The notes beneath the pieces were generated by a model. It was not told the DNA's origin. It did no database searches and saw only the letters and a program-made list of their open reading frames with translations. A DNA stretch of 64,000 nt from an uncultured bacterium (GTDB lineage: Bacteria; Patescibacteriota; Patescibacteriia; CAIQCM01). The stretch lies in the NCBI GenBank assembly GCA_963708045.1, contig OY970181.1, forward strand, positions 515,740 through 579,739, in the 5' to 3' direction. Of this stretch, positions 2 through 58,620 are shown piece after piece. The position numbers and the translations under genes were made by a program. Each line of letters opens with the position of its first letter. Position 1 is the stretch's first letter.

Positions 2-316
2 TTGCGTGCACCCGCGGAAGTGTTGCTTGCGCGAATTAGTGATCACCATTCGCGACTTTGCGAAAATCGTGAAAGCGAATCGCGGGTCGTGAACGTTACC
101 TCACTGCCGTTGGTTGAGGCAGCGGATCGTCTGCGTCTTCTTGTTCTAGGTCTAAAAACGGAATCCGCTTTTAGCAAATTGGCGATGGACGTTGATGCGG
201 CCGCGGGCAGAATTGTGGAGATAATCAAACTTCGTTTATTCCACGACCTGCCATTTTGCCCCGACCGTCCGCGAACGATGGCGGCACCGCAACCAGTTGT
301 TTCCGCCACACTGTAG
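2..316 (+). CDS. hypothetical protein, 5'-partial at the window edge
   Basis: Open frame from the window start to TAG 314-316; GC-rich; no recognisable motif; followed by hairpin 343-378. Confidence 0.2.
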   Translation: MRAPAEVLLARISDHHSRLCENRESESRVVNVTSLPLVEAADRLRLLVLGLKTESAFSKLAMDVDAAAGRIVEIIKLRLFHDLPFCPDRPRTMAAPQPVVSATL

Positions 317-9176: not shown

Positions 9177-10241
9177 ATGTCCGAAATAGAACAATTGGAA
9201 AAATTGATCGCCGTGGCGGTTTTGAAAATGAGTACCGCCGGCGAAGAAGAGCTAAGCGGCATTGAAATGTCCTTACTCGGAAGAAAGGGCGAACTTAATC
9301 GTTTGCTCGCGATTTTGCCAACCCTGCCCGCGGAAAAACGCTCGGCTTTTGGCGCCGCCGCGAACGCGGCCAAAGCAAAAATCAGTGACGAGATTGCTCG
9401 CCGTCGCAAAGAGTTGTCGTCCGAATTTTCCTCCGAACTCGCGAAAAAGGAAAAAATTGACGTGACCGAACCGGGCGCGGAAGGTGCGGTTGGACACAAG
9501 CACTTGGTGAGCGCGGCAATAGAGGATATGGCGCGGATTTTTGAACGGATCGGTTTTCATCGCGAACGCTATAACGAAGCTGATTATGACCACTATGCTT
9601 TTGAAGCGCTGAATGTTCCCGACGATCACCCGGCGCGCGACGATTGGGAAACGTTTTTTTTGGACGCGCCGAACAATAAAAAATACGGACGTCTTTTGCT
9701 TACCCCGCATACTTCAAATTCACAAGTTCACGAAATGGAGCGCCGCGAGCCGCCGATTCGGTTGGTTGCTTTCAGCAAGTGCTATCGTCGCCAAGCCGAC
9801 CTTACCCATCTTCCAATGTTTCATCAGTTTGAAGGTTTGGTTATAGATCGCGGAATTGCTTTAACGCATCTTAAGGGCGTTTTGGATCATTTCGCGAAAA
9901 ATTATTTTGGGGCTGGAAGAAAAACGCGTTTGCGGCCGCATCATTTTAAATTTACCGAGCCGAGTTTTGAAGTGGATATTTCTTGCGATCTTTGCAATGG
10001 AACAGGGTTTGTAGAAAATGGAATGCCATGTCGCGTTTGCAAATCGGGCTGGTTGGAGCTTGGCGGCGCGGGGATGGTGCATCCAAACGTGCTTCGTGCT
10101 GGGGGAATTGATCCCAAAGAATGGAGTGGCCTAGCTTTTGGCTGGGGCGTAGAGCGAACAATGATGATGCGCTCTGGTATGCGCATTCCCGACATTCGGA
10201 TGATTTACGACAACGACCTTCGCTTTCTAAAACAATTCTAA
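9177..10241 (+). CDS. pheS: phenylalanine--tRNA ligase alpha subunit
   Basis: Class II aaRS motifs FKFTEPSFEVD and GWLELGGAGMVHPNVL; Cys4 insertion as in many bacterial PheS; C-terminal NDLRFLKQF. Confidence 0.95.
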   Translation: MSEIEQLEKLIAVAVLKMSTAGEEELSGIEMSLLGRKGELNRLLAILPTLPAEKRSAFGAAANAAKAKISDEIARRRKELSSEFSSELAKKEKIDVTEPGAEGAVGHKHLVSAAIEDMARIFERIGFHRERYNEADYDHYAFEALNVPDDHPARDDWETFFLDAPNNKKYGRLLLTPHTSNSQVHEMERREPPIRLVAFSKCYRRQADLTHLPMFHQFEGLVIDRGIALTHLKGVLDHFAKNYFGAGRKTRLRPHHFKFTEPSFEVDISCDLCNGTGFVENGMPCRVCKSGWLELGGAGMVHPNVLRAGGIDPKEWSGLAFGWGVERTMMMRSGMRIPDIRMIYDNDLRFLKQF

Positions 10242-34760: not shown

Positions 34761-34853
34761 TTATCTTCGGCGCTTGGCCGCCTTCTTTACCTTGCGCACA
34801 ACTTTCTTGGCCTTGCGCACCACCTTTTTTTTCGCTGTCTTCTTTTTTGCCAT
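34761..34853 (-). CDS. 30-aa highly basic peptide (MAKKKTAKKKVVRKAKKVVRKVKKAAKRRR)
   Basis: Below the ORF-track size cutoff; strong SD GGGAGGTG 6 nt upstream of the ATG; terminator-like hairpin and T-run downstream (34612-34627); directly upstream of secE, where rpmG normally sits. Confidence 0.45.
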   Translation of the reverse strand: MAKKKTAKKKVVRKAKKVVRKVKKAAKRRR

Positions 34854-35017: not shown

Positions 35018-36916
35018 TTATTTAATTGGCAGAGTAAACCAAAACCTAGATCCTTTTTCGGGTTCGCTCGTAACGCCGATTTCTCCGCCCAACTTTTCAA
35101 TAATCATTTTGGCGATGTAGAGGCCAAGACCGATTCCTTCTTGCGATCGGCTGAACGAAGCATCGAGTTGTCCAAATTTTTTAAATATTTCGGATTGTTT
35201 TTCTTTAGCGATTCCCGGCCCTTCATCCGTGACACTTATGGTAATTTTGTTATTTTTAATATTAGAAACAGAAAGTTTAATAGTTTGTTCCCTTGGCCCA
35301 AACTTAATCGCGTTGTCTACAAGATCAAAAATAACTTGCGAAATTTTTTCTTGATCACTGATGATTACTTGCTCGGGCAAACTAACTTTTAATAATATTT
35401 TATCATCGCGGTCGCGGGCAATTGATTTTAGAATTGGTTCTAAGCCGTTTATAAAGTCGCCAACTTTAAAGGTCGTCGCATTCGTTGGTATATTTTTGTG
35501 TTCATAACGCGTGACGTCTAAGATTTGCTTGATTGTCCGAGACAACCGCTCGGCTTCCTCGTGAATAATATTGATATACTGATGCTCCTGAGTCGTGAGC
35601 GCTCCGTTTTCGTGTTCAATAATTTCCGAAAGCCCGATAATTGAAGTAAGCGGCGTGCGCAATTCGTGGGTGGCAATATTTATAAACTCGTCTTGAATTG
35701 TTTTAAGTTCAAGTAGTTCGCGTAGTTTTTTAACATCGGTTATGTCGCGGGCAACACAAACCAAGACGGTCTGGCCATAATAGTCAGCCTTTCGCGCGAT
35801 TAGTTCAAAGGGGATGGCTTGTCCATTTTTGGCGCGCATTTCTATTTGTAAAAATAACATTCCTTGGGACTTGACGCGGTTCACCCGTTCGGTAAGGATC
35901 TCAGGCAAACTATTTTTTGCCGGTAAAATTTCAAGATCTCGCGGTGTCATCTTTAGGAGTTCGTCATGGCGATAACTAAGTTTTTCACAAGCTGTCCGGT
36001 TGACTTCTATAAATTTTTTGTCATAAACATTTTCGCCGGGAAGAATAAAGATGGCGTCGCCAGCGCTGTCAAAAACCATTTTAAATTTTTTCTCGCCCAT
36101 AAGCGCCAGCCGTTTGAGATCGCGGACGCGGAAGTTTTTGCTCATATCGCGGCAGATTGCCACCATAAGTTTTCGGTTGTTTAAAACCATGATATGAGAG
36201 TGGATCTGAACGGGGATGATCTTGCCAAGTTTGGTCACGTGTTCGGTTTCAAAAACACCAACCCCTTTTTGTTTTACTAAGGCGATTTTTTCTAGGGTCG
36301 TAGGCCGTGTTGCTTGCGAATTAATGTCCATTGCTGACATTTTTAACAATTGCCGTCTGGTGTAGCCGCTTTGTCGGCAGGCCGCGTTGTTTACTTCAAC
36401 AAAGCGTCCGTTCTCGTCCAAAATATATATTGGATCGGCGGTGTTTTTGAAAATGGTTTTAAATTTAATATCATTGATAATCGCCGTTTGCTGCGTGTTT
36501 ATTTCTGGTGTTATGTCGCGGAAATACCAAACGCGACCGAGGTATTTTTTATTCGCGCCGAAGATTGGCGACGAATAGCGCGAGAAAGTGCGCCCGTCTT
36601 TTAGTTCAATTCGTTCGTAATTGTTTTCGTTCGGGTTTTGGTATAGATATGTAACTGTTTTTAAAAATTGGTTGGGGTTTTTAATGAGCCGCGTTACGTG
36701 TTTAAGAAATTTTTTGTCATTGTTCGTGCTTAACACCGCTTTTGGGATGAGCCACATTTTTCCAAAGAGGGTATTATGCGCCAAAATTTTTCCTTCCGAA
36801 CTAACAACAAGAATGCCGTCGGGCGAGGTTTCAAACTGTGCCGCTAAAAGTGCGTCCGTGCGAATATTTTTTTTGGCGTTCAAATTCTTTAATAATGGTT
36901 TTTTCTTGGTTGACAT
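35018..36916 (-). CDS. cytoplasmic multi-PAS sensor histidine kinase
   Basis: Three PAS-like segments; HisKA H-box HELRTPLTSI; HATPase_c N, G1 (DNAIKF), G2 (GIGLGL) boxes; no TM helix. Confidence 0.9.
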   Translation of the reverse strand: MSTKKKPLLKNLNAKKNIRTDALLAAQFETSPDGILVVSSEGKILAHNTLFGKMWLIPKAVLSTNNDKKFLKHVTRLIKNPNQFLKTVTYLYQNPNENNYERIELKDGRTFSRYSSPIFGANKKYLGRVWYFRDITPEINTQQTAIINDIKFKTIFKNTADPIYILDENGRFVEVNNAACRQSGYTRRQLLKMSAMDINSQATRPTTLEKIALVKQKGVGVFETEHVTKLGKIIPVQIHSHIMVLNNRKLMVAICRDMSKNFRVRDLKRLALMGEKKFKMVFDSAGDAIFILPGENVYDKKFIEVNRTACEKLSYRHDELLKMTPRDLEILPAKNSLPEILTERVNRVKSQGMLFLQIEMRAKNGQAIPFELIARKADYYGQTVLVCVARDITDVKKLRELLELKTIQDEFINIATHELRTPLTSIIGLSEIIEHENGALTTQEHQYINIIHEEAERLSRTIKQILDVTRYEHKNIPTNATTFKVGDFINGLEPILKSIARDRDDKILLKVSLPEQVIISDQEKISQVIFDLVDNAIKFGPREQTIKLSVSNIKNNKITISVTDEGPGIAKEKQSEIFKKFGQLDASFSRSQEGIGLGLYIAKMIIEKLGGEIGVTSEPEKGSRFWFTLPIK

Positions 36917-36919
36917 AAG

Positions 36920-37324
36920 CTAGGCGGCGTCATTGCTCATACTTTTAACAATCGCGTGAACTTTGGCGACAAAATCGTCCATCGCAAACGGTTTTTCCAT
37001 AACGCCTTTTACCGCCGATAGTTCTTTGAATTTTTCTATTGAAGTCTGAAAATCTTTTGATTCAATTGGTAGCGCCGAGATGATTAGAATTGGAATTTTG
37101 CTCATTTCGGCGCTAGTTGCCATTGCCGAACAAACATCAATACCACTAATGTCCGGCATCATTATGTCTAAGACGAGTAGATCGTAATTTGGATCATTGG
37201 TCATCATTGCTAGGGCTTGTTTGCCGCCGTAAGCCGAATCGGCAGTTATTTGTTTTTCGTTATGCAAGGCCGCTTTTAGTGTTTCCACGGTGTTTTTGTC
37301 GTTGTCAACGATTAGAATACGCAT
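36920..37324 (-). CDS. single-domain response regulator (CheY-like receiver)
   Basis: MRILIVDND ... LLVLDIMMPDISG (phospho-acceptor Asp) ... PILIISAL; 3 nt from the kinase gene. Confidence 0.9.
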   Translation of the reverse strand: MRILIVDNDKNTVETLKAALHNEKQITADSAYGGKQALAMMTNDPNYDLLVLDIMMPDISGIDVCSAMATSAEMSKIPILIISALPIESKDFQTSIEKFKELSAVKGVMEKPFAMDDFVAKVHAIVKSMSNDAA

Positions 37325-37330
37325 AAATTT

Positions 37331-38200
37331 TTATTTATGATTGAAATATTTTTCTAAAATTTTTAGATTTTTGTTGACTGGGCGGATAACTTCGCTCACG
37401 TCTTTGCCGATTGGTTCGGGGGTTGCGGTTATTTTTCTGCCAAGGGCGTTTTCGTATTTATAAATCAGGAGAGCGATTATTTCCGATGGGTCTTTTTCCA
37501 TTTTAATAACTCGTCCGGTGCGATTATCAACCAAAAGGCCGTCAATTTGATTGGCCATTATTAAGGCTTTGTTCCCGATTTGGTTTCGGATTTGGGCGAT
37601 AATATCGCTCGTGATTTCATAAAACAATCGATCGCGCGTTGGTGTTTTTTTGTATTCAAGCGGCGAGCCGCGCGAAATTCGTCTCCCCGCGTAAAAATTA
37701 CCAATAAACGCCGCCATTCCCGCAAGTAAAATAAGTCCGATTAAGCACAGCACGAAATCGCTTAAGAAAATGCCAAAAATTTTTGGTTCAATTTTGAATC
37801 TAAATTTTGACGATGCCGGCGCAATCTGTCCGGGATAAGTCACGGTGCTGGTTAATGTATAAACTCCGCTTCCTAGTCCGTTGGGTATCTGGATCGGACG
37901 TATAAAACTGCTGGTAGTTTCCACGGCAACGGTTTCTGATATTGAAGAAACGACGACGTTGCGCGGACTGGTAATGTCGTATTCAATTAAGATATCAACA
38001 CGTTTGGGTGCGCCAAAATTGGATAGCACAACCGAGGTGGGGAGAATGTCGCCCGACGCAAAACGGGTTGCCCCGCCACCGATCGCAAAGTTTGAAAAGA
38101 CTGACCCTTCGGCCAAAGCTGTCGTAGGTGACCCTAAAAATGACAGGGTTATTAAGGTGACAATCCAGGGGCATGGAAATTTTTTTAATTGAGTAATCAT
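37331..38200 (-). CDS. hypothetical secreted protein with a C-terminal TM anchor
   Basis: Signal peptide (TALAEG), beta-rich region, C-terminal hydrophobic helix. Confidence 0.4.
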   Translation of the reverse strand: MITQLKKFPCPWIVTLITLSFLGSPTTALAEGSVFSNFAIGGGATRFASGDILPTSVVLSNFGAPKRVDILIEYDITSPRNVVVSSISETVAVETTSSFIRPIQIPNGLGSGVYTLTSTVTYPGQIAPASSKFRFKIEPKIFGIFLSDFVLCLIGLILLAGMAAFIGNFYAGRRISRGSPLEYKKTPTRDRLFYEITSDIIAQIRNQIGNKALIMANQIDGLLVDNRTGRVIKMEKDPSEIIALLIYKYENALGRKITATPEPIGKDVSEVIRPVNKNLKILEKYFNHK

Positions 38201-38916
38201 ATTTTATCGCGATTTTTATTTTGTCGCCATATTTGGCGAAGGGGGATAATGCCAGCAATGATGACAAAAAATAATTCAATAATGATTAAAAAGATTAAAT
38301 TAGATTTTTGTGGTGTCTTTGATGGGGAAATTTGGACGTCAAAAAGCGGCGGAAAAACGATTTTTTGAGTTTCTGGCGCTGACAAGACTGGTGGCTCAAT
38401 GGCGGCGGTTGGTGTTGGTGTGCTGGTTTGCGGTACGAGGACGCTCACGAATACATTTGAATATGGCGCGGTCAATGAATTTTGGTTTTTAGAATTTAGT
38501 GCAAACGAGTCTGGATAAATCGCGATGTTGCCTGTTCCCGTTGCTTTGGTTTTAAAAGTAATCGTTCCGAGTTCGGCAGGTTGATCAATTCCTCCTGGGT
38601 AGCCAGCAGTTAAATAGATTGTCTCGGTATTATTACTAATTAGACTGCGATTTGCGGCCGGTAAACTTATCCATTGGTCACTCCAACGAAACCATCCAGC
38701 TTCTAACAAATTAATTGGAAATATTATTGCCGCTTGGACCGTAAAGATTTTTTCATTTTTTGGGGAAATATTGATTCCTAAATTTATATTCTCGCCAACG
38801 TTGGCTGTAATCGGATTTCCATCAAAAAATAGAGTCGTTGCCAAGGCTGGGTAAAATGCCATAAAGGTAGATGTAAAAAATATTATGGCGAACGATTTGT
38901 ATCTCATATCGTCCAA
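38197..38916 (-). CDS. cohesin-like domain protein with a C-terminal membrane anchor
   Basis: ITANVGENINLGINI...IFTVQAAIIFPINLLE and TAGYPGGIDQPAELGTITFKTKATGTGNIAIY match the cohesin beta-sandwich pattern; Pro/Thr linker, then a TM helix. Confidence 0.5.
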   Translation of the reverse strand: MDDMRYKSFAIIFFTSTFMAFYPALATTLFFDGNPITANVGENINLGINISPKNEKIFTVQAAIIFPINLLEAGWFRWSDQWISLPAANRSLISNNTETIYLTAGYPGGIDQPAELGTITFKTKATGTGNIAIYPDSFALNSKNQNSLTAPYSNVFVSVLVPQTSTPTPTAAIEPPVLSAPETQKIVFPPLFDVQISPSKTPQKSNLIFLIIIELFFVIIAGIIPLRQIWRQNKNRDKI

Positions 38917-39527
38917 TGGACCATAAGCTGATTAAAATCAAAAATATCAACTCGCCCGCCCGCGTCGTAATCGGAAGGGTTAATTTTATTTTGCGTGCCC
39001 CAATTCGCAACCAGCGCGTTAAATTCGTTTAGGTCAATGCGGTTGTCTTGATTAGTGTCATAGGGCTGAGTTGTGTCGTTGTTTGGAACTAAGATAATGC
39101 CATCGGAATAAATATCCGAACACACGTCCTCAGTATTACAAAATCTCGCATAAATTGTTTTAAGTCCGGGCGCGTTGGGAAATTCGTGGGGTGTGTGATT
39201 AATTTTATAATTTGTATCAAAATTAAGGCGTCGTTTTTCACCAAAAGCCGGGTCTTCGGAGATCTCAACCCAAGTTGTGTCTGGTTTTCCAAAAAGACTA
39301 ATGGTTACTTGTGGCGAAGAAGTGTTCGCTTCGTCGTTGTTAATTTTGATGCCATAGTTTTCCGTTTCGGATGTGTTTATATCGCTTAGCGTCGCCGTTG
39401 TTTTAGTGAAAATTAATTTTTTGTTAATTTCTAAACCAACGCTCACATTGTTTTCTAGTGCGAACGTCAATACTGCCAAACAAAAATATTTTACAGCGCC
39501 TTCAAAGACCAGATTATTTTTTTGCAT
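38904..39527 (-). CDS. dockerin-type (double EF-hand-like Ca-binding repeat) secreted protein
   Basis: C-terminal DTNQDNRIDLNEFNALVANW and DYDAGGRVDIFDFNQLMVHW are the two ~22-aa dockerin type I repeats; N-terminal signal/TM. Confidence 0.55.
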   Translation of the reverse strand: MQKNNLVFEGAVKYFCLAVLTFALENNVSVGLEINKKLIFTKTTATLSDINTSETENYGIKINNDEANTSSPQVTISLFGKPDTTWVEISEDPAFGEKRRLNFDTNYKINHTPHEFPNAPGLKTIYARFCNTEDVCSDIYSDGIILVPNNDTTQPYDTNQDNRIDLNEFNALVANWGTQNKINPSDYDAGGRVDIFDFNQLMVHWTI

Positions 39528-39582
39528 TAAAAAAATAAGTAAGCACCTATAGCTTACTTAAAAACCGGTTGGATAAAGTTAT

Positions 39583-40017
39583 CTAACTGTCGGCGTATCT
39601 TGGATTAACCGCAATAGTCAGTTTTTTTACCAAAAGCAAATCTTTGATTGTTGTCTCGGACGAAACCTTATTATTAATTTCGCGTCCGGCATTGTAAATA
39701 GTTCGCCATCCCTTATTAGGGCTAGGATCGTTCCATTTTTCAAGCACCTCATCCCACGACCATTCTTTATGCAAAGAAGCCTTATTTGCAAAAAGCGTTT
39801 TGCAAAGCATGTTCTGGTCAGAATTATAAGGTATTTTAATTTCTACGCCGGCAAAAAATATTTTGTGCGATAATAAATTATAAGTTGGTGGCGGAAAGCG
39901 GGACTGGCTGATTTTTTCTTTTAGAGTCGGAACAATATCGGAAAAAAAGTAGTCATTAAAATTTTCAAGTCTATTTTTTTGACCCCCGCCCTCCAAGCTT
40001 TGGATCAATTTTGACAT
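39583..40017 (-). CDS. hypothetical protein
   Basis: 144-aa ORF, no motif. Confidence 0.35.
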   Translation of the reverse strand: MSKLIQSLEGGGQKNRLENFNDYFFSDIVPTLKEKISQSRFPPPTYNLLSHKIFFAGVEIKIPYNSDQNMLCKTLFANKASLHKEWSWDEVLEKWNDPSPNKGWRTIYNAGREINNKVSSETTIKDLLLVKKLTIAVNPRYADS

Positions 40018-40071
40018 ATTTAAAAAATACCACTGTGATAGGTTTTGTCAATATTCTTGGCTTTTTTTAAA

Positions 40072-50331: not shown

Positions 50332-52347
50332 ATGCAGTTTAGAGAAATAAAAAACTGGAAAATAAAAACCGGCCCGTTTGTGATGGTCGGGGTAATTGTT
50401 TTTAGTATCTTTTTTTCTTTAATAAAACCCAACGTTGCTTTGGCTCATCCCGACTTGGGTTTGCATGCGGCCTCAATCGTGTGGTTAGACGAAACGCATA
50501 TTCGCGTTACCTACGATTGGTCAACTGCTGATCAAGTCTCGGATTGGGTGACAACAATCGGCGGGGCTATTACTTGGAATTCTGGAAGTTCAACCGTTTC
50601 AGTTGGTGGAGGGTGGGGAGATATACGAGGTATGCAGTGGGTGCGCCCAATTGCGGCCTCGTCGGTCACGGCTCATGCTAAATCTGCGCCGACTTATTTT
50701 ATAAATATGTATACCAATCTTCCGTCTGATTGGTATACAAATCCAAGATGGGATCCAACCCCAGGGCTTGGCACAATCTATTATGACCACCCGCGACAAT
50801 TAGTTGTAAACGGTGTTTCTTATATCGATGAAGCAAGTTGGGATGTTGGTTTGCTTGAGCGAAGTACTTGGTATGATTTTTTATTCACTGCAAGTCCGTC
50901 AGTAATTACAACATGGTCTAGTGTAGCAAATACGGGTGGGGCAACATTCAGCAAGACCGGGTCTTATGATTTAAGCACCGATGGTCGCGTGGGTGTGGGT
51001 GCTTATGGAGTTTCACCAACCGAATGGGGGACGATCGTCATTGAAGGCGAAATTTCATTACCGTCATACACCCTTACCTATACTGCCGGTGCGAACGGTT
51101 CAATTACTGGTTCCTCGCCACAAACGGTTCATCAAAATTTTGACGGCACGCAAGTTACTGCTACTCCTGCCGCGAATTACCACTTCACGAGCTGGTCCGA
51201 CAGTGTCCTTACCGCCGCGCGCACTGATTTGAATGTAGTGGGAGATATAACGGTCACCGCCAACTTTGCGATTGACACCCACACCCTCACCTACACCGCC
51301 GGCGCAAATGGTTCAGTTACCGGTACTAATCCGCAAACCATTAATCACGGCTCCGACGGTACCGCCGTCACCGCCGTTCCCAACTCGGGTTATCGCTTTG
51401 TTGATTGGTCGGATACTTCAATAATAAACCCGCGCACGGACACGAATGTGACAACCAATCTGGCTGTGACGGCTAACTTTATGGCAAACAGACGCCCTCC
51501 AAGCAGCAGTGGCTCATCGGTAGTTCTTTCGCCATCAATCACAATCCGCACACCGGCGAGCGGCGTATCATATAATGCCGACGCAATCGTTGGCCTTGAT
51601 TGGTCATCGGCCAATGGCGCCTTTACTAAATACAAAATTTATTACTCATCGGATAATGGCACAACTTATTCGGCGATTGGCGAAACAACCTCAACTTCGT
51701 TAAGTTGGACTGTTCCCGACGTCGGCACAACGCAAGGAAAAATAAAAGTTGAAGGTTATGATGCCGCGAGAACTCTGCTTGCTTCGGCAACTTCAAACGG
51801 AAACTTTGTCGTGGTCGGCGATGCAATACTGGAATCAGAAGAGGGAACACAACCAACCACAACACCGCCTGTCACCGACTCAACCGCGACCGGAACTTAT
51901 TCTCCCACTGAAGCGCTGGAAAATACTCCCGACATCAATACCGACATGAACCTCACGCTAGTCGCGCCATCACTCTGCACCTCAGGCTCACTCATTAAAG
52001 GTTCGCTTTCTTCAGTTTATTACTGCGGCGCTAATGGCAAGCGTTATGTCTTTGTGAACGACCGCGCTTACTTTAGCTGGTACCAAGACTTCTCAACCAT
52101 TAAAACTATTTCCGACGCCGACCTCGCCTTAATCCCGCTCGGGGGCAACATTACTTATCGTCCCGGCTCCCGAATGATCAAAATCCAATCCGACCCCAGA
52201 GTCTACGTTATTTCTCGTGGCGGCATCTTGCGCTGGGTTAGCTCCGAAGCCATCGCCGCCGCACTCTATGGCGCGAACTGGGCAACAATGATTGACGATG
52301 TCTCTGATGCCTTTTTTGTAAATTATACAGTTGGCGCGCCGATTTAG
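50332..52347 (+). CDS. cell-surface protein with two Listeria-Bacteroides (flg_new-type) repeats
   Basis: Duplicated HTLTYTAGANGS.TG..PQT...DGT.VTA.P...Y.F..WSD ... TANF units; signal peptide/TM at the N-terminus. Confidence 0.5.
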   Translation: MQFREIKNWKIKTGPFVMVGVIVFSIFFSLIKPNVALAHPDLGLHAASIVWLDETHIRVTYDWSTADQVSDWVTTIGGAITWNSGSSTVSVGGGWGDIRGMQWVRPIAASSVTAHAKSAPTYFINMYTNLPSDWYTNPRWDPTPGLGTIYYDHPRQLVVNGVSYIDEASWDVGLLERSTWYDFLFTASPSVITTWSSVANTGGATFSKTGSYDLSTDGRVGVGAYGVSPTEWGTIVIEGEISLPSYTLTYTAGANGSITGSSPQTVHQNFDGTQVTATPAANYHFTSWSDSVLTAARTDLNVVGDITVTANFAIDTHTLTYTAGANGSVTGTNPQTINHGSDGTAVTAVPNSGYRFVDWSDTSIINPRTDTNVTTNLAVTANFMANRRPPSSSGSSVVLSPSITIRTPASGVSYNADAIVGLDWSSANGAFTKYKIYYSSDNGTTYSAIGETTSTSLSWTVPDVGTTQGKIKVEGYDAARTLLASATSNGNFVVVGDAILESEEGTQPTTTPPVTDSTATGTYSPTEALENTPDINTDMNLTLVAPSLCTSGSLIKGSLSSVYYCGANGKRYVFVNDRAYFSWYQDFSTIKTISDADLALIPLGGNITYRPGSRMIKIQSDPRVYVISRGGILRWVSSEAIAAALYGANWATMIDDVSDAFFVNYTVGAPI

Positions 52348-52484: not shown

Positions 52485-53042
52485 ATGCTGACCGAACTTG
52501 CGAATGAAAAAGAGTTGGCTGAACGGGCGACGAAAGACGGTGACGCTTTTGCCGCGCTTTACGATTTTTATTTTCCAAAAATTTGGGCGTACACGATTAG
52601 GCGCGTCGGACACACGGAAACGGCTGAAGATATTGTTTCACAAATATTTTTAAAAATTACCGAAGCTTTGCCGCGCCGAAAAAATAACGCGCCCTTTGGC
52701 GCTTGGGTTTTTCGGATCGCTACAAATACAATCATTGATCATTATCGGGCAAGTGGTCGGCACCGTGAAGAAGAAATCGTTGCCGCGGAAAATATTCCCG
52801 AACGCGGTTTAGCTCCTGACGAATTTTCCGAGGCTAGGCTCGTGTTTAGAGAAATAGAAACAATCCTCGGCGAACTTCCCGAGCGCGACCGACGCATTGT
52901 TCACCTTAAATTTTTTGCCGGCTTAAGTAACGGTGAAATCGCCGTAACGGAAAAAACTAAAGAGGGGAATATAGCAATAATTGTTCATCGGGCGCTTCAA
53001 AAAATACGTAAACAGAGCAAATTTTATGGAAAACTTGAATAA
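52485..53042 (+). CDS. ECF-subfamily RNA polymerase sigma-70 factor
   Basis: Region 2 (YDFYFPKIWAYTIRRVG...AEDIVSQIFLKI) and region 4 HTH (LPERDRRIVHLKFFAGLSNGEIA); TACAAT box 7 nt before the ATG. Confidence 0.85.
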   Translation: MLTELANEKELAERATKDGDAFAALYDFYFPKIWAYTIRRVGHTETAEDIVSQIFLKITEALPRRKNNAPFGAWVFRIATNTIIDHYRASGRHREEEIVAAENIPERGLAPDEFSEARLVFREIETILGELPERDRRIVHLKFFAGLSNGEIAVTEKTKEGNIAIIVHRALQKIRKQSKFYGKLE

Positions 53043-56000
53043 TCAAGACGAAAAAAACTTAAATAGCGAAGAGGTAAAGCGTAATGAAAACACTGGCGGA
53101 GCGTTGGAAGAGATGGAGAGCAAAATCTCCATGCTTATCAACCATAATAATACGGACGCCTCAGACAAATTCCGCGAATCGTTAAAAACGCGGGTACTTG
53201 AGGCGCACGCCAAAAATAATATGCCTCGTTTTTCCGGCTTTAAGAATTTGATCGGATTTTTTTCCGCTCGCCGCTTTTCGTTTGCCATAACGATCGTTCT
53301 CTTGCTCGCGGTCGTCGGCGGTGTTTTGCTTAATGGTTATTTTGGCGGACGCGAACGGAGTATTGCTAAAATTTTTATTAATCCCGCCTACGCCGCCGAC
53401 GACTTTTCACTTGTCTCGCTTGCGGCTGATTCCGCCGGTGTTACTCCCGATTCGGTCTACAAACTCACAAGCAAAGAATCGTTTTCCACGGCCGACATTA
53501 AAGCTGGACTAAGTCTGACGCCAACGATGGAGGTCGGTGTCAAACAAACAGCGGATAAAGAATGGATGATTACGCCGAGTGAAAAATTGCCAGCCAATTC
53601 GCTTTTAAAAATTGCCCTTGCCGCGGCAATAAACGACAACGGAACAATCACGACGCGCGATTTTTCTTGGGCGTTTCAAGTTAAAGATCATTTCCGCGTT
53701 CTTAATTCGCTTCCTGGGAACGCGGCAACCTCGGTCCCGGTGAATACGGGTATAGAAGTAACTTTTAGCCATCCAAACTTAAATGGCTATGAAAAATATT
53801 TTGCCATTAGTCCCGAAGTTAAAGGACGTTTTGAATATCACGCCCGCACCGCCGTTTTTGTGCCAACCGAACCACTCAAGGCTGGTGAGCTTTATACGGT
53901 GACCATTGGCGCTGATCTGGTACTAACCGAATCCACCGAAAAATTGGGCGAAGATTATAAATTTAGTTTTGAAACGGCTAAAGAAACCAAAGACGCTGGC
54001 GGTTATGAAAATTGGTTTGGCGTTAATGAAAAAATGGTGCAATTCAGTTCCGACGAAAGTCCGTTCATTGGTGTTTATGGCGACACCAAGGCGCAAACCA
54101 CGGCTAATGTATATTCGTTTTCTTCGGCCGACGCTTTTCTTGCGGGTATAAATGAACGCAATAAATATCCGCGCTGGACGGAAAAATGGAATAATTATCA
54201 CTATGATGTTTCGGGGCTTGCCAAAGTCACGTCGTTTACGCCAAAAATTGAAACGCAAAATTACGCCAACTTCTTTGTTTTCCCGTCAAAATTGCCGATT
54301 GGTTTTTATCTCACCGAAGTCGCGTATCAAAACAAAACTTTCCAAGTCTGGATGCAGGTGAATGATTTAAACGTTTTTTACAACATTGATATTAACCACA
54401 CGCTGGTTTGGGTAAACCGGATTGGTGGCGTTTCGCCGGCTACCGAGGCGACGGTTTCGGTCGGTGATTTGGTACAAAATGTAAAAACGGACGCTAGTGG
54501 CGTGGCAACGTTTGATATTCCGGCGGCGTATCAAGATGCCAAAAGCAAATATGCCGACCAGCCGCTTTATCTAATTGTTCGCGCGGGCGCCTCAACGATG
54601 ATTACTGATTTTTATCCCGGCGGGAAAACAGCCGCCAGTCGTTGGTCATATTTTTATACCGACCGCCCGCGCTATCAATCAACCGATACGATTCATTTTT
54701 TTGCGATGACTCGGGATCGCGCGAGCGGCATCGCCTCGCCCGGAAAATACTCGGTAATTCTCCGCAAATCCGGTTGGTACGATTATTATTACAACCCGGT
54801 AAAAATTGTTGAAACCGAAGTTGCGCCGGACGCCTACGGCACAATGACGGGCGCGCTTTCGCTTGCCGATTTGCGCCCCGACTACTATGAAGTCGCGCTT
54901 ACGCTTGACGGCGAAACAATTGCGACAAGCTGGGTAAATGTTCTCCCTTATACCAAACCGGCCTACTCAATTTCGGTAACTAACGACCGCGCCGCGGCCT
55001 TCTCGGGCGAACAGATAAATTTTACCGCGACGGCGAAATTTTTTGACGACACGCCGGCCGCCGGAATTAAAATGAAGGTCGTAGACGAATTAGGGATAAA
55101 GATTGGCTCTTTCACGACCGACGAACAAGGACAAATAACTTTTTCTTCAACCCAAGATTACGACGGAACAAAATATTGGCCGCAATGGAAGTATTTTACC
55201 GTTAGTCCAGAGTCGTCGGAGCTTGGCGACATTAGCGGCTCGGCAAACGGCGCTTGGTACGGTCCGCGCGTTTACGGAACAAGCGAAGTTAAGTATCCGG
55301 AAAAAGGCCGCGCCGAATTAAAGATCAAAGTTCGTAACGTTGATATTAACAAAATTAATTTCCCAAATAACGTGCAATGGGATGAAGATTGGCAAGGGTC
55401 GGATCCGGCTGCGGGCATAAATATTTCTGGCGAAGTAATAAAGATTACTTACAACAAGGTTGAAACTGGTACAGCTTATGACTTCATCAACAAAACGTCT
55501 TATAAAACTTATCGTTACGATCGGGTGGAAACAAAAGTTGACACGCTTTCGCTTGTAACTGGCGCGGACGGTATGGCGCGTTACAGTCGCGCGGTTGAAC
55601 CGAACACTTTTTACAACATAAATTATAAAATCAGCGACGCGGCGCATCGCACCGAAGCGCACAACGACGGCTTCTATTATTATGACGGCAATACTTATTA
55701 TCGCGATTATTTCTCTTACGGGGAAAATGCGCAACCGACAATTGAATTTAACACGAGCGACCGTCTGTATTCGCTCGGCGACAAGGTTAAAGCGACGCTT
55801 TCGCTTAACGCTAAGCCGGTTTCCATGGCGCAAACTGACCGCATTCTTTTTGCCAAATACCAAAACGGTCTAAAGAGCTTTGTGGTGCAAGGGAGCCCAG
55901 TTTATGAATTTAATTTTTCCGAAAGCGATGTTCCTAACGTTCAGCTTTTTGCCGCCTGGTGGGATGGAAAAAATTATCACACGGCGCGAACCGACGGCTG

Positions 56001-58620
56001 GTGGGGGATGAGCGACGGCGGCGCGAAATATAAATATACTGATCGCGAACTCACGATTGACGCCGCTTTTGATAAAACGACGTATGCGCCAGGGAGCGAC
56101 GCTAAATTTTCAGTAACGGTTAAAGACAAGAATGGTCGTCCGGTCGCCGCCGCTCTAAATCTTAATTTGGTTGACGAAGCGTATTACGCGATTGCGAATA
56201 GCTCGGCAAATCCGCTCCAAAGCATCTACACGCCGCAATATTCGGGAATCATTGATTCGGCGGAAACGCAAGAACCGCCGCCTTCGGCCACGGCCGGCGG
56301 TGCGGAACGTGGTGGCTGTTTTGCCCCTGGCACGATGATTACGATGGCTGATGGTAGCAAAAAGGCGATTGAAAAAGTTAAAGTTGGCGACAAGGTGGCG
56401 ACACTCGCGAATCCGCTTAACGCCGATGTTGTAACAGGAACAGTTGGCGCGGTTTTTGAGCATACCGCGAATAAAATGATTTCCGTTAACAACGGACTTC
56501 TCAAGGCTACACCCGAACATATGATCTATGCGAGCGGCACTTTTAAAACCGCTGGCGAAATTGCGGTTGGAGATGTACTCCTTGGACTTAACGGGAAAAA
56601 GACGGTTGTCACTTCGGTTAAAGTTGTTTTTGAAAAAATTTCCGTCTACAATTTGCGTGTTGATCCATATCACACCTTTATTGCAAACGGTATCTATGTT
56701 CACAATGACAAGGACGGCGCCGTGCGTCAGAACTTTGTTGATGTCGCGCTTTTTCGCACGGTCACAACCGATAGCGCAGGCAAAGCGACAGTTGACTTTA
56801 AGTTGCCGGATAACGTTACTTCTTGGCGGCTTACGACACAGGCGATTGGTGCTAATCTTTCAGTCGGAATGTCCACACAAAAAATAAAAACCACCTTGCC
56901 GGCTTTTGTTGACGTTACCATTGGTAAGGATTATCTCGTAGGCGATCAGGTTGTTGCTAAACTGCGTTCGTTTGGTACGAACCTTACAGCCACGGACGCG
57001 GTTTCTTACGCTGTTACTTCGGAAGGGCTTGGCAACGCCTCATTTTCTTTTGCAACCGAAGGCAAAGCGTACCGTCCGACCGAAGTTAATCTGCCACCGC
57101 TCACATCGGGAAATTTCAACGTTACCTATTCAATGAAAAGCCAAAAAGGAAATGACGCCGTGCTTTTGCCGCTAAACGTTTCCAAGTCGTTTTTGCGGAT
57201 CAATAAAATCCTTTCATCCACTGATGTTTCGCCCGGGGTAAAGTTTTCTGCGCCTGGCGCAACTGACTCCGTAAAAATTACTTTTGCCGACGCGAGTTCA
57301 ATGAAATTATATCGGCCGCTTTCGGAACTTAGCTGGAGTTGGGGAAAACGCGTTGACCAAACGCTCGCGCATTCGCTTGCCGCCGATTTGCTTCTTAAAT
57401 ACTTTAAAGAAGATTGGCACGAAAATACTTTTGACGGCAGCGCGTATCAGCAAGCTGATGGCGGCATCGCGATTTTGCCTTACGGTTCTTCGGATATGGA
57501 TCTTTCGGCGCGTCTCGCGGCTTTAGCGCCGGAAAAATTTAGCGTCTCGGCGTTACGTCAATATTTTATGGCGGAAATTGATTCCAAGAATGCGACGCCC
57601 GAGACGGTGACTAACGCGCTTTTGGGTTTGGCGTCGCTCGGTGATCCGGTTTTGCCGCGGTTAGAGCTCTGGAAAGATAGAACTGATCTGACAATAGAAA
57701 GCCGCATGCGCGTTGCTCTCGCTCTTTACAAGGTCGGCGCGAACGAAGATGCGCGGATGATTTATAACGATGTGCTAAAGAGCGGCGAAAGTCGCGGTGC
57801 GTATTATCTCTTGTCCGGCAAAGACGAGAACGAAACATTACTGCGCACGGCCTTTTTGGGCGAACTTGCGGCCGCGCTTAATATGCCGGAACGCGACGCG
57901 CTCTGGGCTTACGTTACTGATCATAAATATGATAAAAAAATTGAAGTCCTGACCAACCTTGAAGATTTGTCGTTTGTTATGTTGGCTATCCCAACACTTA
58001 CGCCCGGTCCCTCTAAAGTCGCTTACGAACTTAAGGGAATGAAAAATGAAATTGATCTGAATGGCTGGGGTCAAAAAGTAATCAGACTTCAGGCGTCGGA
58101 ACTTGATAAATTGAACATCACCTCGGTGGAAGGAAAAATCAGCGCGGCGGTTTCTGCGGATGCTTCTATCACCGAAGTTGATCTGGTCGCGAACAAGGAC
58201 GTTTCCATTACCCGATCATATTCGGTGGTCGGCGGCGCCGATAATACAACCGACTTTAAGGACAATGATATTATTCGTGTGACGATTGACGTAAAAATTT
58301 CGCGCAATTCGCCGAGTCGTAATTATCAGGTGACGGACATTCTTCCGGCTGGCTTAATTTCGGCGACAAATGTTTATGACGCGTATCGTCCTTATGACAA
58401 CTATTGGAGCAACCCGTTTGATGTAAACGGCCAGCTTGTTTCCTTTAATGTTTGGAAGTACGGCGATCCGGATAAATATGGAAATTATTCGGAGACGATT
58501 CATTATTACGCCCGAGTAAAAACAAAAGGCAGTTACAAGGCCGAGCCGGCGATTATTCAGGCCTTTTCTGACCCAGGAACGATTAATTATTCTTCGGCTG
58601 GAATCGTAACCGTTAAATGA
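53026..58620 (+). CDS. anti-sigma-like giant membrane protein with alpha-2-macroglobulin-like MG domains and an internal Hint domain
   Basis: ATG 53026 overlaps the sigma gene by 17 nt (the track starts at TTG 52981); ~85-aa cytoplasmic N-region then one TM helix (FAITIVLLLAVVGGVLL); YFYTDRPRYQSTDTIHFFAMTRD resembles the A2M MG-domain motif TDRPIYRPGxTVHF; Hint domain at nt 56317-56706; ends with TGA. Confidence 0.55.
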   Translation: MENLNNQDEKNLNSEEVKRNENTGGALEEMESKISMLINHNNTDASDKFRESLKTRVLEAHAKNNMPRFSGFKNLIGFFSARRFSFAITIVLLLAVVGGVLLNGYFGGRERSIAKIFINPAYAADDFSLVSLAADSAGVTPDSVYKLTSKESFSTADIKAGLSLTPTMEVGVKQTADKEWMITPSEKLPANSLLKIALAAAINDNGTITTRDFSWAFQVKDHFRVLNSLPGNAATSVPVNTGIEVTFSHPNLNGYEKYFAISPEVKGRFEYHARTAVFVPTEPLKAGELYTVTIGADLVLTESTEKLGEDYKFSFETAKETKDAGGYENWFGVNEKMVQFSSDESPFIGVYGDTKAQTTANVYSFSSADAFLAGINERNKYPRWTEKWNNYHYDVSGLAKVTSFTPKIETQNYANFFVFPSKLPIGFYLTEVAYQNKTFQVWMQVNDLNVFYNIDINHTLVWVNRIGGVSPATEATVSVGDLVQNVKTDASGVATFDIPAAYQDAKSKYADQPLYLIVRAGASTMITDFYPGGKTAASRWSYFYTDRPRYQSTDTIHFFAMTRDRASGIASPGKYSVILRKSGWYDYYYNPVKIVETEVAPDAYGTMTGALSLADLRPDYYEVALTLDGETIATSWVNVLPYTKPAYSISVTNDRAAAFSGEQINFTATAKFFDDTPAAGIKMKVVDELGIKIGSFTTDEQGQITFSSTQDYDGTKYWPQWKYFTVSPESSELGDISGSANGAWYGPRVYGTSEVKYPEKGRAELKIKVRNVDINKINFPNNVQWDEDWQGSDPAAGINISGEVIKITYNKVETGTAYDFINKTSYKTYRYDRVETKVDTLSLVTGADGMARYSRAVEPNTFYNINYKISDAAHRTEAHNDGFYYYDGNTYYRDYFSYGENAQPTIEFNTSDRLYSLGDKVKATLSLNAKPVSMAQTDRILFAKYQNGLKSFVVQGSPVYEFNFSESDVPNVQLFAAWWDGKNYHTARTDGWWGMSDGGAKYKYTDRELTIDAAFDKTTYAPGSDAKFSVTVKDKNGRPVAAALNLNLVDEAYYAIANSSANPLQSIYTPQYSGIIDSAETQEPPPSATAGGAERGGCFAPGTMITMADGSKKAIEKVKVGDKVATLANPLNADVVTGTVGAVFEHTANKMISVNNGLLKATPEHMIYASGTFKTAGEIAVGDVLLGLNGKKTVVTSVKVVFEKISVYNLRVDPYHTFIANGIYVHNDKDGAVRQNFVDVALFRTVTTDSAGKATVDFKLPDNVTSWRLTTQAIGANLSVGMSTQKIKTTLPAFVDVTIGKDYLVGDQVVAKLRSFGTNLTATDAVSYAVTSEGLGNASFSFATEGKAYRPTEVNLPPLTSGNFNVTYSMKSQKGNDAVLLPLNVSKSFLRINKILSSTDVSPGVKFSAPGATDSVKITFADASSMKLYRPLSELSWSWGKRVDQTLAHSLAADLLLKYFKEDWHENTFDGSAYQQADGGIAILPYGSSDMDLSARLAALAPEKFSVSALRQYFMAEIDSKNATPETVTNALLGLASLGDPVLPRLELWKDRTDLTIESRMRVALALYKVGANEDARMIYNDVLKSGESRGAYYLLSGKDENETLLRTAFLGELAAALNMPERDALWAYVTDHKYDKKIEVLTNLEDLSFVMLAIPTLTPGPSKVAYELKGMKNEIDLNGWGQKVIRLQASELDKLNITSVEGKISAAVSADASITEVDLVANKDVSITRSYSVVGGADNTTDFKDNDIIRVTIDVKISRNSPSRNYQVTDILPAGLISATNVYDAYRPYDNYWSNPFDVNGQLVSFNVWKYGDPDKYGNYSETIHYYARVKTKGSYKAEPAIIQAFSDPGTINYSSAGIVTVK
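56317..56706 (+). other. Hint / mini-intein-like domain (130 aa) embedded in the giant protein
   Basis: Block A CFAPGTMITMADGS, block B TPEH, block G HTFIANGIYVHN; the residue after the terminal Asn is Asp, not Cys/Ser/Thr. Confidence 0.6.

Follow-up and report, generated by a model that had tools for sequence, protein, structure and literature searches.

A putative dockerin–cohesin surface pair beside a membrane protein–receiver–kinase unit in a presumed Parcubacteria-like bacterium

In cellulosomal anchoring, a cell-bound cohesin holds a secreted dockerin protein, and the dockerin is formed by a duplicated Ca-binding loop and helix. Anchoring cohesins with type I dockerins are represented by OlpA/OlpC–dockerin of C. 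thermocellum (3ul4, 4dh2) and CohA2-Doc0917 of C. acetobutylicum (6kgf). In the cellulolytic bacterium Cellulosilyticum lentocellum, the adjacent one-cohesin and one-dockerin genes of ClcC/ClcD (Clole_2599/2598) encode a heterodimer, shown experimentally, which enhances cellulase activity (PMC13487519). Non-cellulosomal cohesin and dockerin modules have been described in archaea, including anaerobic methanotrophic archaea (ANME) (PMC9012536), and a survey of such modules was made by Peer et al. 2009, as cited in PMC9012536. Here, we describe a locus of five co-directional open reading frames (ORFs), g1–g5, packed on the minus strand at positions 35018-39527 of a 64-kb stretch of DNA (contig OY970181.1, hereafter the window), in which a putative dockerin gene (g1) and a putative cohesin gene (g2) are followed by genes for a membrane protein (g3), a receiver (g4) and a PAS histidine kinase (g5).

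Based on the results presented below, we suggest that the region is a five-gene operon of two modules, each recurring elsewhere. Module A (g1 and g2) would be a one-to-one surface-display pair, and it would be coupled to module B (g3, g4 and g5), a three-component signalling module. This is the explanation that we favour, and taken as a whole we hold it with a little better than even confidence. It is built on domain identities, membrane topology, conserved gene order and natural gene fusions. Like ClcC/ClcD, the window has one cohesin gene and one dockerin gene side by side; in contrast to ClcC/ClcD, its pair carries no enzyme domain, the cohesin is membrane-anchored, and the pair is family-wide in candidate-phyla-radiation (CPR) bacteria and linked to g3 and a two-component system. 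The cellulosomal anchoring cohesins listed above share the β-sandwich of g2 and are its best structural matches, but g2 has a single cohesin with no multi-cohesin scaffoldin, and its anchor is a C-terminal transmembrane helix instead of surface-layer homology (SLH) domains or a sortase. The host also differs, being apparently a Parcubacteria-like CPR/Patescibacteria bacterium and not a cellulolytic Firmicute; all the named relatives of g3 belong to the Parcubacteria/Paceibacterota group. A cellulosome was rejected as an explanation, since no scaffoldin, carbohydrate-binding module (CBM) or carbohydrate-active enzyme (CAZyme) was found in the window, and g2 contains one cohesin and no other domain. 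As with the archaeal and other non-cellulosomal modules, the pair would be used for something other than breaking down plant cell walls, presumably for assembling the surface or for cell–cell interaction; however, those modules are scattered domains in varied proteins, whereas here there is a fixed dockerin-then-cohesin gene pair. In the searchable literature on cohesins or dockerins together with CPR, Patescibacteria or Parcubacteria, we found neither a fixed gene pair with a transmembrane-anchored cohesin nor its connection with a receiver and kinase described, and the signalling extension of the cohesin–dockerin pair is undescribed there.

The initial annotation had presented g2 as a cohesin-like β-sandwich protein with a Pro/Thr linker and a C-terminal transmembrane anchor, and each of these elements was recovered by modelling and hydropathy analysis. 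The AlphaFold2 (AF2) model of g2, built from the family alignment, had a mean predicted local distance difference test score (pLDDT) of 86.7 (>95 over most of the cohesin domain) and included a C-terminal helix at residues 203-235; hydropathy placed the C-terminal transmembrane segment at residues 199-227. The model predicts the flattened β-sandwich (jelly-roll) fold of cohesins. An unrelated immunoglobulin (Ig)-like fold was considered as well, and a Foldseek search of the PDB returned cohesin modules only among the top 50 matches, with target-normalised TM-scores up to 0.78 (for example, 6kgf_C, E 4.7e-9, TM-score 0.71). The non-cellulosomal cohesin of Archaeoglobus fulgidus (2xdh) ranked sixth, with a TM-score of 0.73. 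The sequence identity of g2 to cellulosomal cohesins was only 9-15%. Judging by its model, g2 has the cohesin fold and is predicted to be a single-cohesin membrane anchor. Its signal peptide is probably cleaved after ALA23, and the linker of ~40 residues (158-198) includes a conserved FPPLFDV motif.

At the sequence level, g2 falls slightly short of the Pfam Cohesin (PF00963) gathering score of 24.1 bits, with 21.1 bits for the whole protein and 23.3 bits for the domain alone (E-values 8e-5 to 4e-4). Its relatives were clearer, as 44 of the 98 top family members matched this model at E<=1e-3, the best with 4.5e-10. The family itself was collected by an exhaustive HMMER search with a profile of two domain sequences, in which 740 cluster representatives passed E<=1e-3 and 405 of them E<=1e-10; with few exceptions, the members are 230-270 amino acids (aa) long and carry the domain at residues ~25-160. 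A word-indexed protein search turned up, apart from the query itself, a single relative of g1 and a single one of g2, and the families became visible only through exhaustive HMMER. A cluster look-up returned neither names nor taxonomy for the window's proteins, and single-sequence searches of PDB sequences with g1 and g2 had SspB and a designed binder as best matches (E>0.1).

A (P)LFD[VI] motif was observed 15-25 residues before the transmembrane helix in many cohesin-family proteins. In g2, it lies at residues ~185-192 (38332-38355, minus strand), and the strict pattern was counted in 20 of 98 cohesin-family sequences. In the fusions of cohesin and g3 described below, the motif stands where the cohesin linker passes into the g3-type ectodomain.

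The putative dockerin of g1 is located at the extreme C-terminus. Two dockerin Ca-binding repeats had been reported at the end of this protein, and both were present verbatim: DTNQDNRIDLNE-FNALVANW (residues 157-176) and DYDAGGRVDIFD-FNQLMVHW (residues 186-205). Each repeat is a 12-residue Ca-binding loop followed by a helix, and the loop starts are 29 residues apart. Two loop-helix repeats in the same layout were found in 63 aligned relatives of the module, and the family consensus (D.N.D.KIDILDFN.LMVNWG ... ADFN.DG.VDIFDFNLLM..WT) always stands at the very C-terminus. As many as 59 of 63 homologous C-terminal modules from related loci match Pfam Dockerin_1 (PF00404), the best with 1.4e-13. 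In loop 1 of g1, all five ligands are present (D, N, D, D and E at positions 1, 3, 5, 9 and 12). The other dockerin-bearing proteins expected as cargo were not found in the window; a six-frame scan of its 64 kb with the dockerin-loop pattern matched only the two repeats of g1 and detected no further dockerin motif outside this protein.

Several properties of the window's own module weigh against its being a dockerin. In isolation it matched Dockerin_1 with E=0.59 and its ortholog from an independent metagenome contig (L001) with 0.073, over profile positions 2-53 of 57, and EF-hand models outscored Dockerin_1 on the window module (EF-hand_5, 2e-4). Loop 2 reads D, D, G, D and D, with Gly at ligand position 5, where the L001 ortholog has Asn. 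In addition, a profile of the module family compared with the PDB had calmodulin EF-hand pairs as the best matches and no dockerin in the top 60. The putative dockerin of the window appears to be a divergent member of its family.

Since EF-hand models score as well as or above Dockerin_1 on this copy, and calmodulin dominates the PDB profile search, the C-terminal module of g1 might be merely a stabilising Ca-binding EF-hand pair. The cohesin-like domain of g2 would then bind a glycan or a host-surface protein, as cohesin-like folds serve other purposes in some proteins, and g1 and g2 would share a surface structure without any cohesin–dockerin contact. We consider this very improbable. The Dockerin_1 matches of 59 of the 63 family modules extend over nearly the full length, and the module, always C-terminal, duplicates a loop and helix and has no entering helices. 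Furthermore, its gene stands one-to-one next to that of a cohesin in all 63 non-redundant loci, as a cognate pair predicts, and archaeal non-cellulosomal cohesin–dockerin pairs have been reported to bind (PMC9012536).

To characterise the pair in other genomes, metagenomes were scanned with the cohesin-family alignment, which gave 302 confirmed places and 80 recovered loci, and the window's proteins were compared with the six-frame ORFs of these loci. In 73 of the 80 loci, the cohesin gene is immediately preceded by a same-strand ORF that ends in a dockerin, and the remaining 7 loci were cut within 160 nucleotides (nt) of the contig end. After clustering at 90% identity (68 clusters), the dockerin gene was present in all 63 clusters with upstream room. 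The frame boundaries of the two genes are no more than 100 nt apart in 69 of 73 loci. Given the strict one-to-one adjacency and the overlapping start and stop codons, g1 and g2 were taken as probable cognate partners. The case is indirect and strong that they are such partners, and the pairing of the cohesin with an adjoining presumptive dockerin partner, already proposed by the initial annotation, is strongly supported by the adjacency in 73 of 73 loci with room.

The other neighbours of the pair are not conserved across loci, and the dockerin proteins differ in their N-terminal parts, which range from ~150 to >1000 aa. The g1 ortholog of L001 is 50% identical to g1. The N-domain of g1 is lineage-specific, being common only to L001, L003, L008 and L083 among the recovered loci, and it had no match in Pfam, NCBIfam or PHROG. 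In about 30 loci (L016, L018, L020, L022, L024, L035 and L056 among them), a large ORF of up to ~2,400 aa lies immediately upstream of the dockerin gene. Five of these ORFs were scanned and contained Big_12, Big_5, Big_13, PKD, fn3, HYR and LTD domains; no dockerin was found in the large upstream ORFs. No such large, adhesin-like Ig-repeat gene adjoins the window's pair. Clustering had suggested that the large Ig-repeat proteins are homologs of the adjacent dockerin proteins. This was rejected as a single-linkage artefact, because direct BLASTP in nine loci showed no similarity, and the adjacency alone stands. Because the dockerin–cohesin gene pair occurs in every locus with room, it may be a device by which Parcubacteria generally anchor their surface proteins, and it would extend cohesin–dockerin biology well beyond cellulosomes.

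It should be mentioned that a Nealsonbacteria contig (L083, 2172-4911) has two consecutive dockerin-terminated genes upstream of one cohesin gene, g3, receiver and kinase. One of the two dockerin proteins has ~213 aa and the other 667 aa with DUF5018. Therefore, one anchor may serve more than one cargo.

The third gene, g3, was previously described as a further secreted, anchored protein. The membrane anchor was confirmed, but the description was incomplete, because g3 is predicted to be a bitopic protein with a conserved cytoplasmic domain. Hydropathy analysis placed its central transmembrane segment at residues 139-172, and the AF2 model had a pLDDT of 79 (core >90). In a Foldseek search of the PDB, this model resembled only generic fibronectin type III (FnIII)/Ig-like sandwiches, such as RbmA, RhoGDI and Wzt-CBD. 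The Pfam family PF09608 (Alph_Pro_TM, putative transmembrane protein) matched 61 of 69 g3 relatives weakly (best 3.3e-7) over the ectodomain and transmembrane part; the window's own g3 had no PF09608 match, and we found no literature on the function of PF09608. NCBIfam and PHROGs gave nothing for g0 (a small gene upstream of g1, see below), g1, g2 or g3. Profile searches with the cytoplasmic domain alone found no match in Pfam or in PDB sequences, which would place this domain outside the PF09608 model. By sequence comparison, the cytoplasmic part of g3 appears to be a conserved, currently unannotated domain.

The g3 family has at least 274 members. In about 13 of the 80 loci, the cohesin gene is followed by a g3 homolog, and the two are naturally fused in at least 10 of 119 g3-family representatives as well as in L076, L077 and L082; in the fusion proteins, the cohesin-family domain stands in front of g3 (E 1e-47 to 1e-51 with the cohesin-family hidden Markov model). 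Wherever the locus leaves room (11 of 11), the gene immediately after the g3 homolog encodes a receiver. The PAS kinase gene comes directly after the g3-receiver genes or one gene later in most of these 11 loci, and several kb downstream in two. The same g3-receiver-kinase arrangement was found in Nealsonbacteria and Nomurabacteria genomes. Hence the cassette, which the initial annotation regarded as unusual, is not confined to this genome: both the pair and the pair with the signalling module recur widely in Parcubacteria-type metagenome contigs. A scan of GTDB species representatives for g3 gave one fragmentary locus (L002), which contains g0, a short g3 with the transmembrane helix and cytoplasmic domain only, a receiver and a kinase, with no dockerin, cohesin or g3 ectodomain. 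From the content of L002, the link to the two-component genes would reside in the cytoplasmic part of g3. Accompanying gene content thus indicates g3 as the element that co-varies with receiver and kinase, and its connection to them is likely to be cytoplasmic, with the connection to the pair outside the membrane.

The two remaining genes were named correctly by the initial annotation as a CheY-like receiver and a cytoplasmic triple-PAS kinase, according to Pfam and hydropathy. The g4 protein is a stand-alone receiver (Response_reg, 3.1e-17) with acceptor Asp53, Ser83 and Lys111 present and an acidic pocket of D7-N8-D9. The g5 protein contains three PAS stretches, HisKA (3.7e-16) with the H-box HELRTPL, and HATPase_c (5.4e-29); it is soluble, with a hydropathy maximum of 1.05 and no transmembrane segment. 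By these domains and residues, g4 and g5 can be assigned to a HisKA-type two-component pair. Pfam detected no output domain in g4. Any control by g4 is probably exerted through protein–protein contact, because the receiver has no DNA-binding output domain. For the same reason, direct transcriptional control by g4 was rejected as unlikely, and the earlier proposal that the expression of the pair is under two-component control was not upheld.

CPR/Patescibacteria bacteria are thought to live attached to host cells, and little is known of the way in which their surface is built or attachment is sensed; their genomes keep very few signalling systems. In LiaF-LiaSR, BceAB-BceRS and YycHI-WalK, a separate membrane protein supplies or modulates the extracytoplasmic input of the kinase, and the RsgI/SigI control of cellulosome genes is an example of a cellulosome system connected to a transmembrane sensor. 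Compared with all these systems, g5 is fully soluble, g4 has no DNA-binding domain, the architecture of g3 is unrelated, and there is no sequence relationship.

On the favoured reading, the locus may work as follows. The g1 protein would be exported through its N-terminal signal segment, and its Ca-loaded C-terminal dockerin would dock onto the single cohesin of g2, which would be tethered to the cytoplasmic membrane, on its outer side, by the Pro/Thr stalk of ~40 residues and the C-terminal transmembrane helix. As a result, the variable N-domain of g1 would be displayed on the cell surface. In module B, g3 with the single-domain receiver g4 and the soluble triple-PAS kinase g5 would form the signalling unit. 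Placed beside the cohesin–dockerin complex, g3 would serve as the physical bridge between the modules and relay the state of the complex (whether it is occupied, under load, or touching the surface of a host or partner) via its cytoplasmic domain to the kinase and receiver. In this outside-in direction, g3 would be the missing membrane sensor for a kinase/receiver pair that itself has none, and the phosphorylated receiver would act on protein targets and not on DNA. What we infer here is that g1 binds g2 in a Ca-dependent manner, that g3 touches g2 as well as the receiver or kinase, and in which direction the signal runs. The link of g3 to the receiver and PAS kinase, together with the fusions, points to communication from the surface to the cytoplasm.

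A more specific version, which we put forward as a rather unlikely speculation, is that the cohesin–dockerin contact itself is sensed. Here, g3 would turn docking or mechanical load on host engagement into a phosphorylation signal, via a membrane-adaptor domain that recruits the kinase and receiver. If true, this would reveal a previously unknown adaptor domain and, in episymbiotic CPR bacteria, a three-component system of a new class that senses contact.

Outside-in signalling is favoured, and the reverse direction, with the receiver acting on g3, is nearly as plausible. As a complete explanation, inside-out regulation is possible but on balance unlikely. The PAS kinase would respond to a cue from the cytoplasm (redox, energy or a metabolite), the receiver, once phosphorylated, would bind the cytoplasmic domain of g3, and g3 would alter the presentation, clustering or release of the complex. 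The two-component system would then regulate assembly, which is close to the idea of the initial annotation. Such regulation would agree with the three cytoplasmic PAS domains and lack of a transmembrane segment in g5, with a receiver that has no output domain and hence needs a protein target, with the cytoplasmic domain of g3 as the most consistently adjacent candidate for that target (receiver after g3 in 11 of 11 loci), and with the existence of cohesin–g3 fusions. However, no observation made here separates the two signalling directions, and in L002 the receiver, the kinase and the cytoplasmic domain of g3 are retained in a locus that has no cohesin, dockerin or ectodomain. The signalling module would therefore have a function independent of surface display.

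The coupling of the two modules has to be weighed against other observations as well. About 60 of the 73 pair loci have no g3 or two-component genes nearby, and therefore module B is not needed for module A. The g3 cytoplasmic domain has no recognisable relative in the searches mentioned above, and its role can be suggested from gene context only. Small CPR genomes pack their genes tightly, which weakens arguments from short spacers. Finally, a terminator-like hairpin abuts the start of g1, and no convincing separate promoter for g1–g5 was seen. It could be supposed from the pairs without g3, receiver or kinase, from the signalling unit without the pair in L002, and from the otherwise variable neighbourhoods of the pair that there is no functional coupling at all, g1 and g2 being a self-sufficient anchoring pair and g3-g4-g5 an unrelated neighbour co-transcribed through genome compactness. 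We regard this as quite improbable, because the juxtaposition recurs at 35-45% identity in many contigs from several named Parcubacteria lineages, the g2 and g3 genes overlap by ATGA, and at least 10 cluster representatives and 3 metagenome loci have cohesin and g3 in one polypeptide. A two-module operon with a coupled signalling unit thus remains our preferred explanation. The positions of its genes and domains, together with the upstream elements, are given in the table.

Table. Genes, predicted domains and candidate transcription signals of the locus. Positions refer to the window, and residues (res) to the protein.
Feature	Position	Strand	Size or residues	Description	Basis
g1	38904-39527	(-)	207 aa	gene	ORF listing
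g1 parts			res 6-24; ~res 55-148	signal segment (6-24); beta-rich N-domain (~55-148); putative C-terminal dockerin	hydropathy, ORF
g1 dockerin module (putative)	38907-39059	(-)	res 157-207		motif scan + Pfam
g2	38197-38907	(-)	236 aa, counted from ATG	gene	
g2 parts		(-)		signal peptide, cohesin, Pro/Thr linker, C-terminal transmembrane helix, short basic tail (predicted)	ORF, model, hydropathy
g2 cohesin domain (predicted)	38437-38838	(-)	res 24-157		Pfam, AF2, Foldseek
g2 transmembrane helix	38227-38313	(-)	~res 199-227		hydropathy, AF2
g3	37331-38200	(-)	289 aa	gene	ORF listing
g3 signal peptide		(-)		N-terminus; bitopic membrane protein (predicted)	
g3 Ig-like ectodomain	37790-38068	(-)	res 45-137	seven-stranded	AF2
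g3 transmembrane helix	37685-37765	(-)	res 146-172		AF2
g3 cytoplasmic domain	37334-37675	(-)	res 176-289, ~115 aa	helix-helix-hairpin-helix	AF2
g4	36920-37324	(-)	134 aa	gene	ORF listing
g5	35018-36916	(-)	632 aa	gene	ORF listing
g0	39583-40017	(-)	137-144 aa	conserved small cytoplasmic protein; L001 8901-9314; L002 2401-2817	
Terminator-like hairpin	39536-39560	(-)		between g0 and g1; 9-bp stem TAAGTAAGC/GCTTACTTA, 7-nt loop, T7 tail	
Sigma-70-like promoter candidate	40024-40051	(-)		upstream of g0; TTGACA-16-TATTTT, extended TG	

The five tightly packed minus-strand genes reported earlier were all present. Of the two overlaps claimed for them, the 4-nt overlap between the g2 stop and the g3 ATG (ATGA) was confirmed, but that of 13 nt between g1 and g2 was not. 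The mechanical ORF call of g2 covers 38197-38916 with a TTG start, and the 13-nt figure arose because this first in-frame TTG was taken as the start. The start of g2 is likely the ATG at 38907 (MRYKSF...); the protein counted from this codon is the database product for the same genome (P0001), and the g1 stop and g2 ATG then overlap by 4 nt (ATGA), as they do in the ortholog. The reported spacers of 3 and 6 nt agreed with the sequence, the former separating g4 and g5 and the latter g3 and g4. Hydropathy analysis gave a single N-terminal hydrophobic segment in g1 and no transmembrane segment in g4 or g0. The locus is flanked by housekeeping genes, with gyrB upstream and secE-nusG-rplK downstream, and its source contig has a length of 1,188,223 bp. 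On contig L001, the order gyrB-g0-g1-g2-g3-receiver-kinase-secE-nusG-L11 is repeated with 45-66% protein identity; the five-gene arrangement is not due to chance, because it is kept on this independent contig. No paralogs of g0, g1, g2 or g3 were found within the window.

Upstream of g1, the g0 protein carries the signature RFPPP.Y...HK..FAGVEI.IPYNSDQ..LCKT...KEWSWDE.LEKW...KGWRTVYNAGREIN and has no match in Pfam, NCBIfam or PHROG. Only in the three closest genomes, the pair-less L002 among them, does it stand ahead of the g3-receiver-kinase unit, and its membership in the system is uncertain. The TTGACAAAAC box of the promoter candidate in front of g0 is conserved in L001 and L002. The hairpin between g0 and g1 has a fold energy of -10.6 kcal/mol (z = -2.4), and its stem (AAGTAAGC/GCTTACTT) is nearly identical in the window, L001 (~9336-9362) and L002 (~2850-2877), with proteins 45-70% identical. 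In the window, the tail of the hairpin ends 2 nt before the g1 ATG. Here and in L001, the T-tail almost reaches the g1 start codon, and therefore there is no room for a promoter. Expression of g1–g5 may depend on read-through of the hairpin.

On the other side of the locus, the region between the kinase stop and secE has a conserved promoter-like site (CCGACA-17-TAGAAT) and a conserved leader, with elements up to ~34969. It also contains an extremely basic ORF of 30 aa (MAKKKTAKKKVVRKAKKVVRKVKKAAKRRR) at 34761-34853 on the minus strand, together with a strong Shine-Dalgarno sequence (GGGAGGTG). The ORF is conserved in L001 with in-frame indels and could not be placed in any protein family. A tRNA-Trp gene stands upstream of secE-nusG in many bacteria. 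ARAGORN found no tRNA-Trp at this place in the window; over the whole 64 kb, neither tRNA genes (ARAGORN) nor Rfam families at the gathering threshold were detected.

Elsewhere in the window, a gene at 52981-58620 on the plus strand encodes an alpha-2-macroglobulin-like bacterial protein of 1879 aa with Big_5, bMG3, MG2, A2M and bMG10 domains. It is preceded by genes for an extracytoplasmic function (ECF)-type sigma factor (52485-53042) and an InlB-B-repeat protein (50332-52347). The 1879-aa protein has a HINT/PT-HINT (intein-like) insertion at residues ~1107-1243, just N-terminal to the A2M domain.

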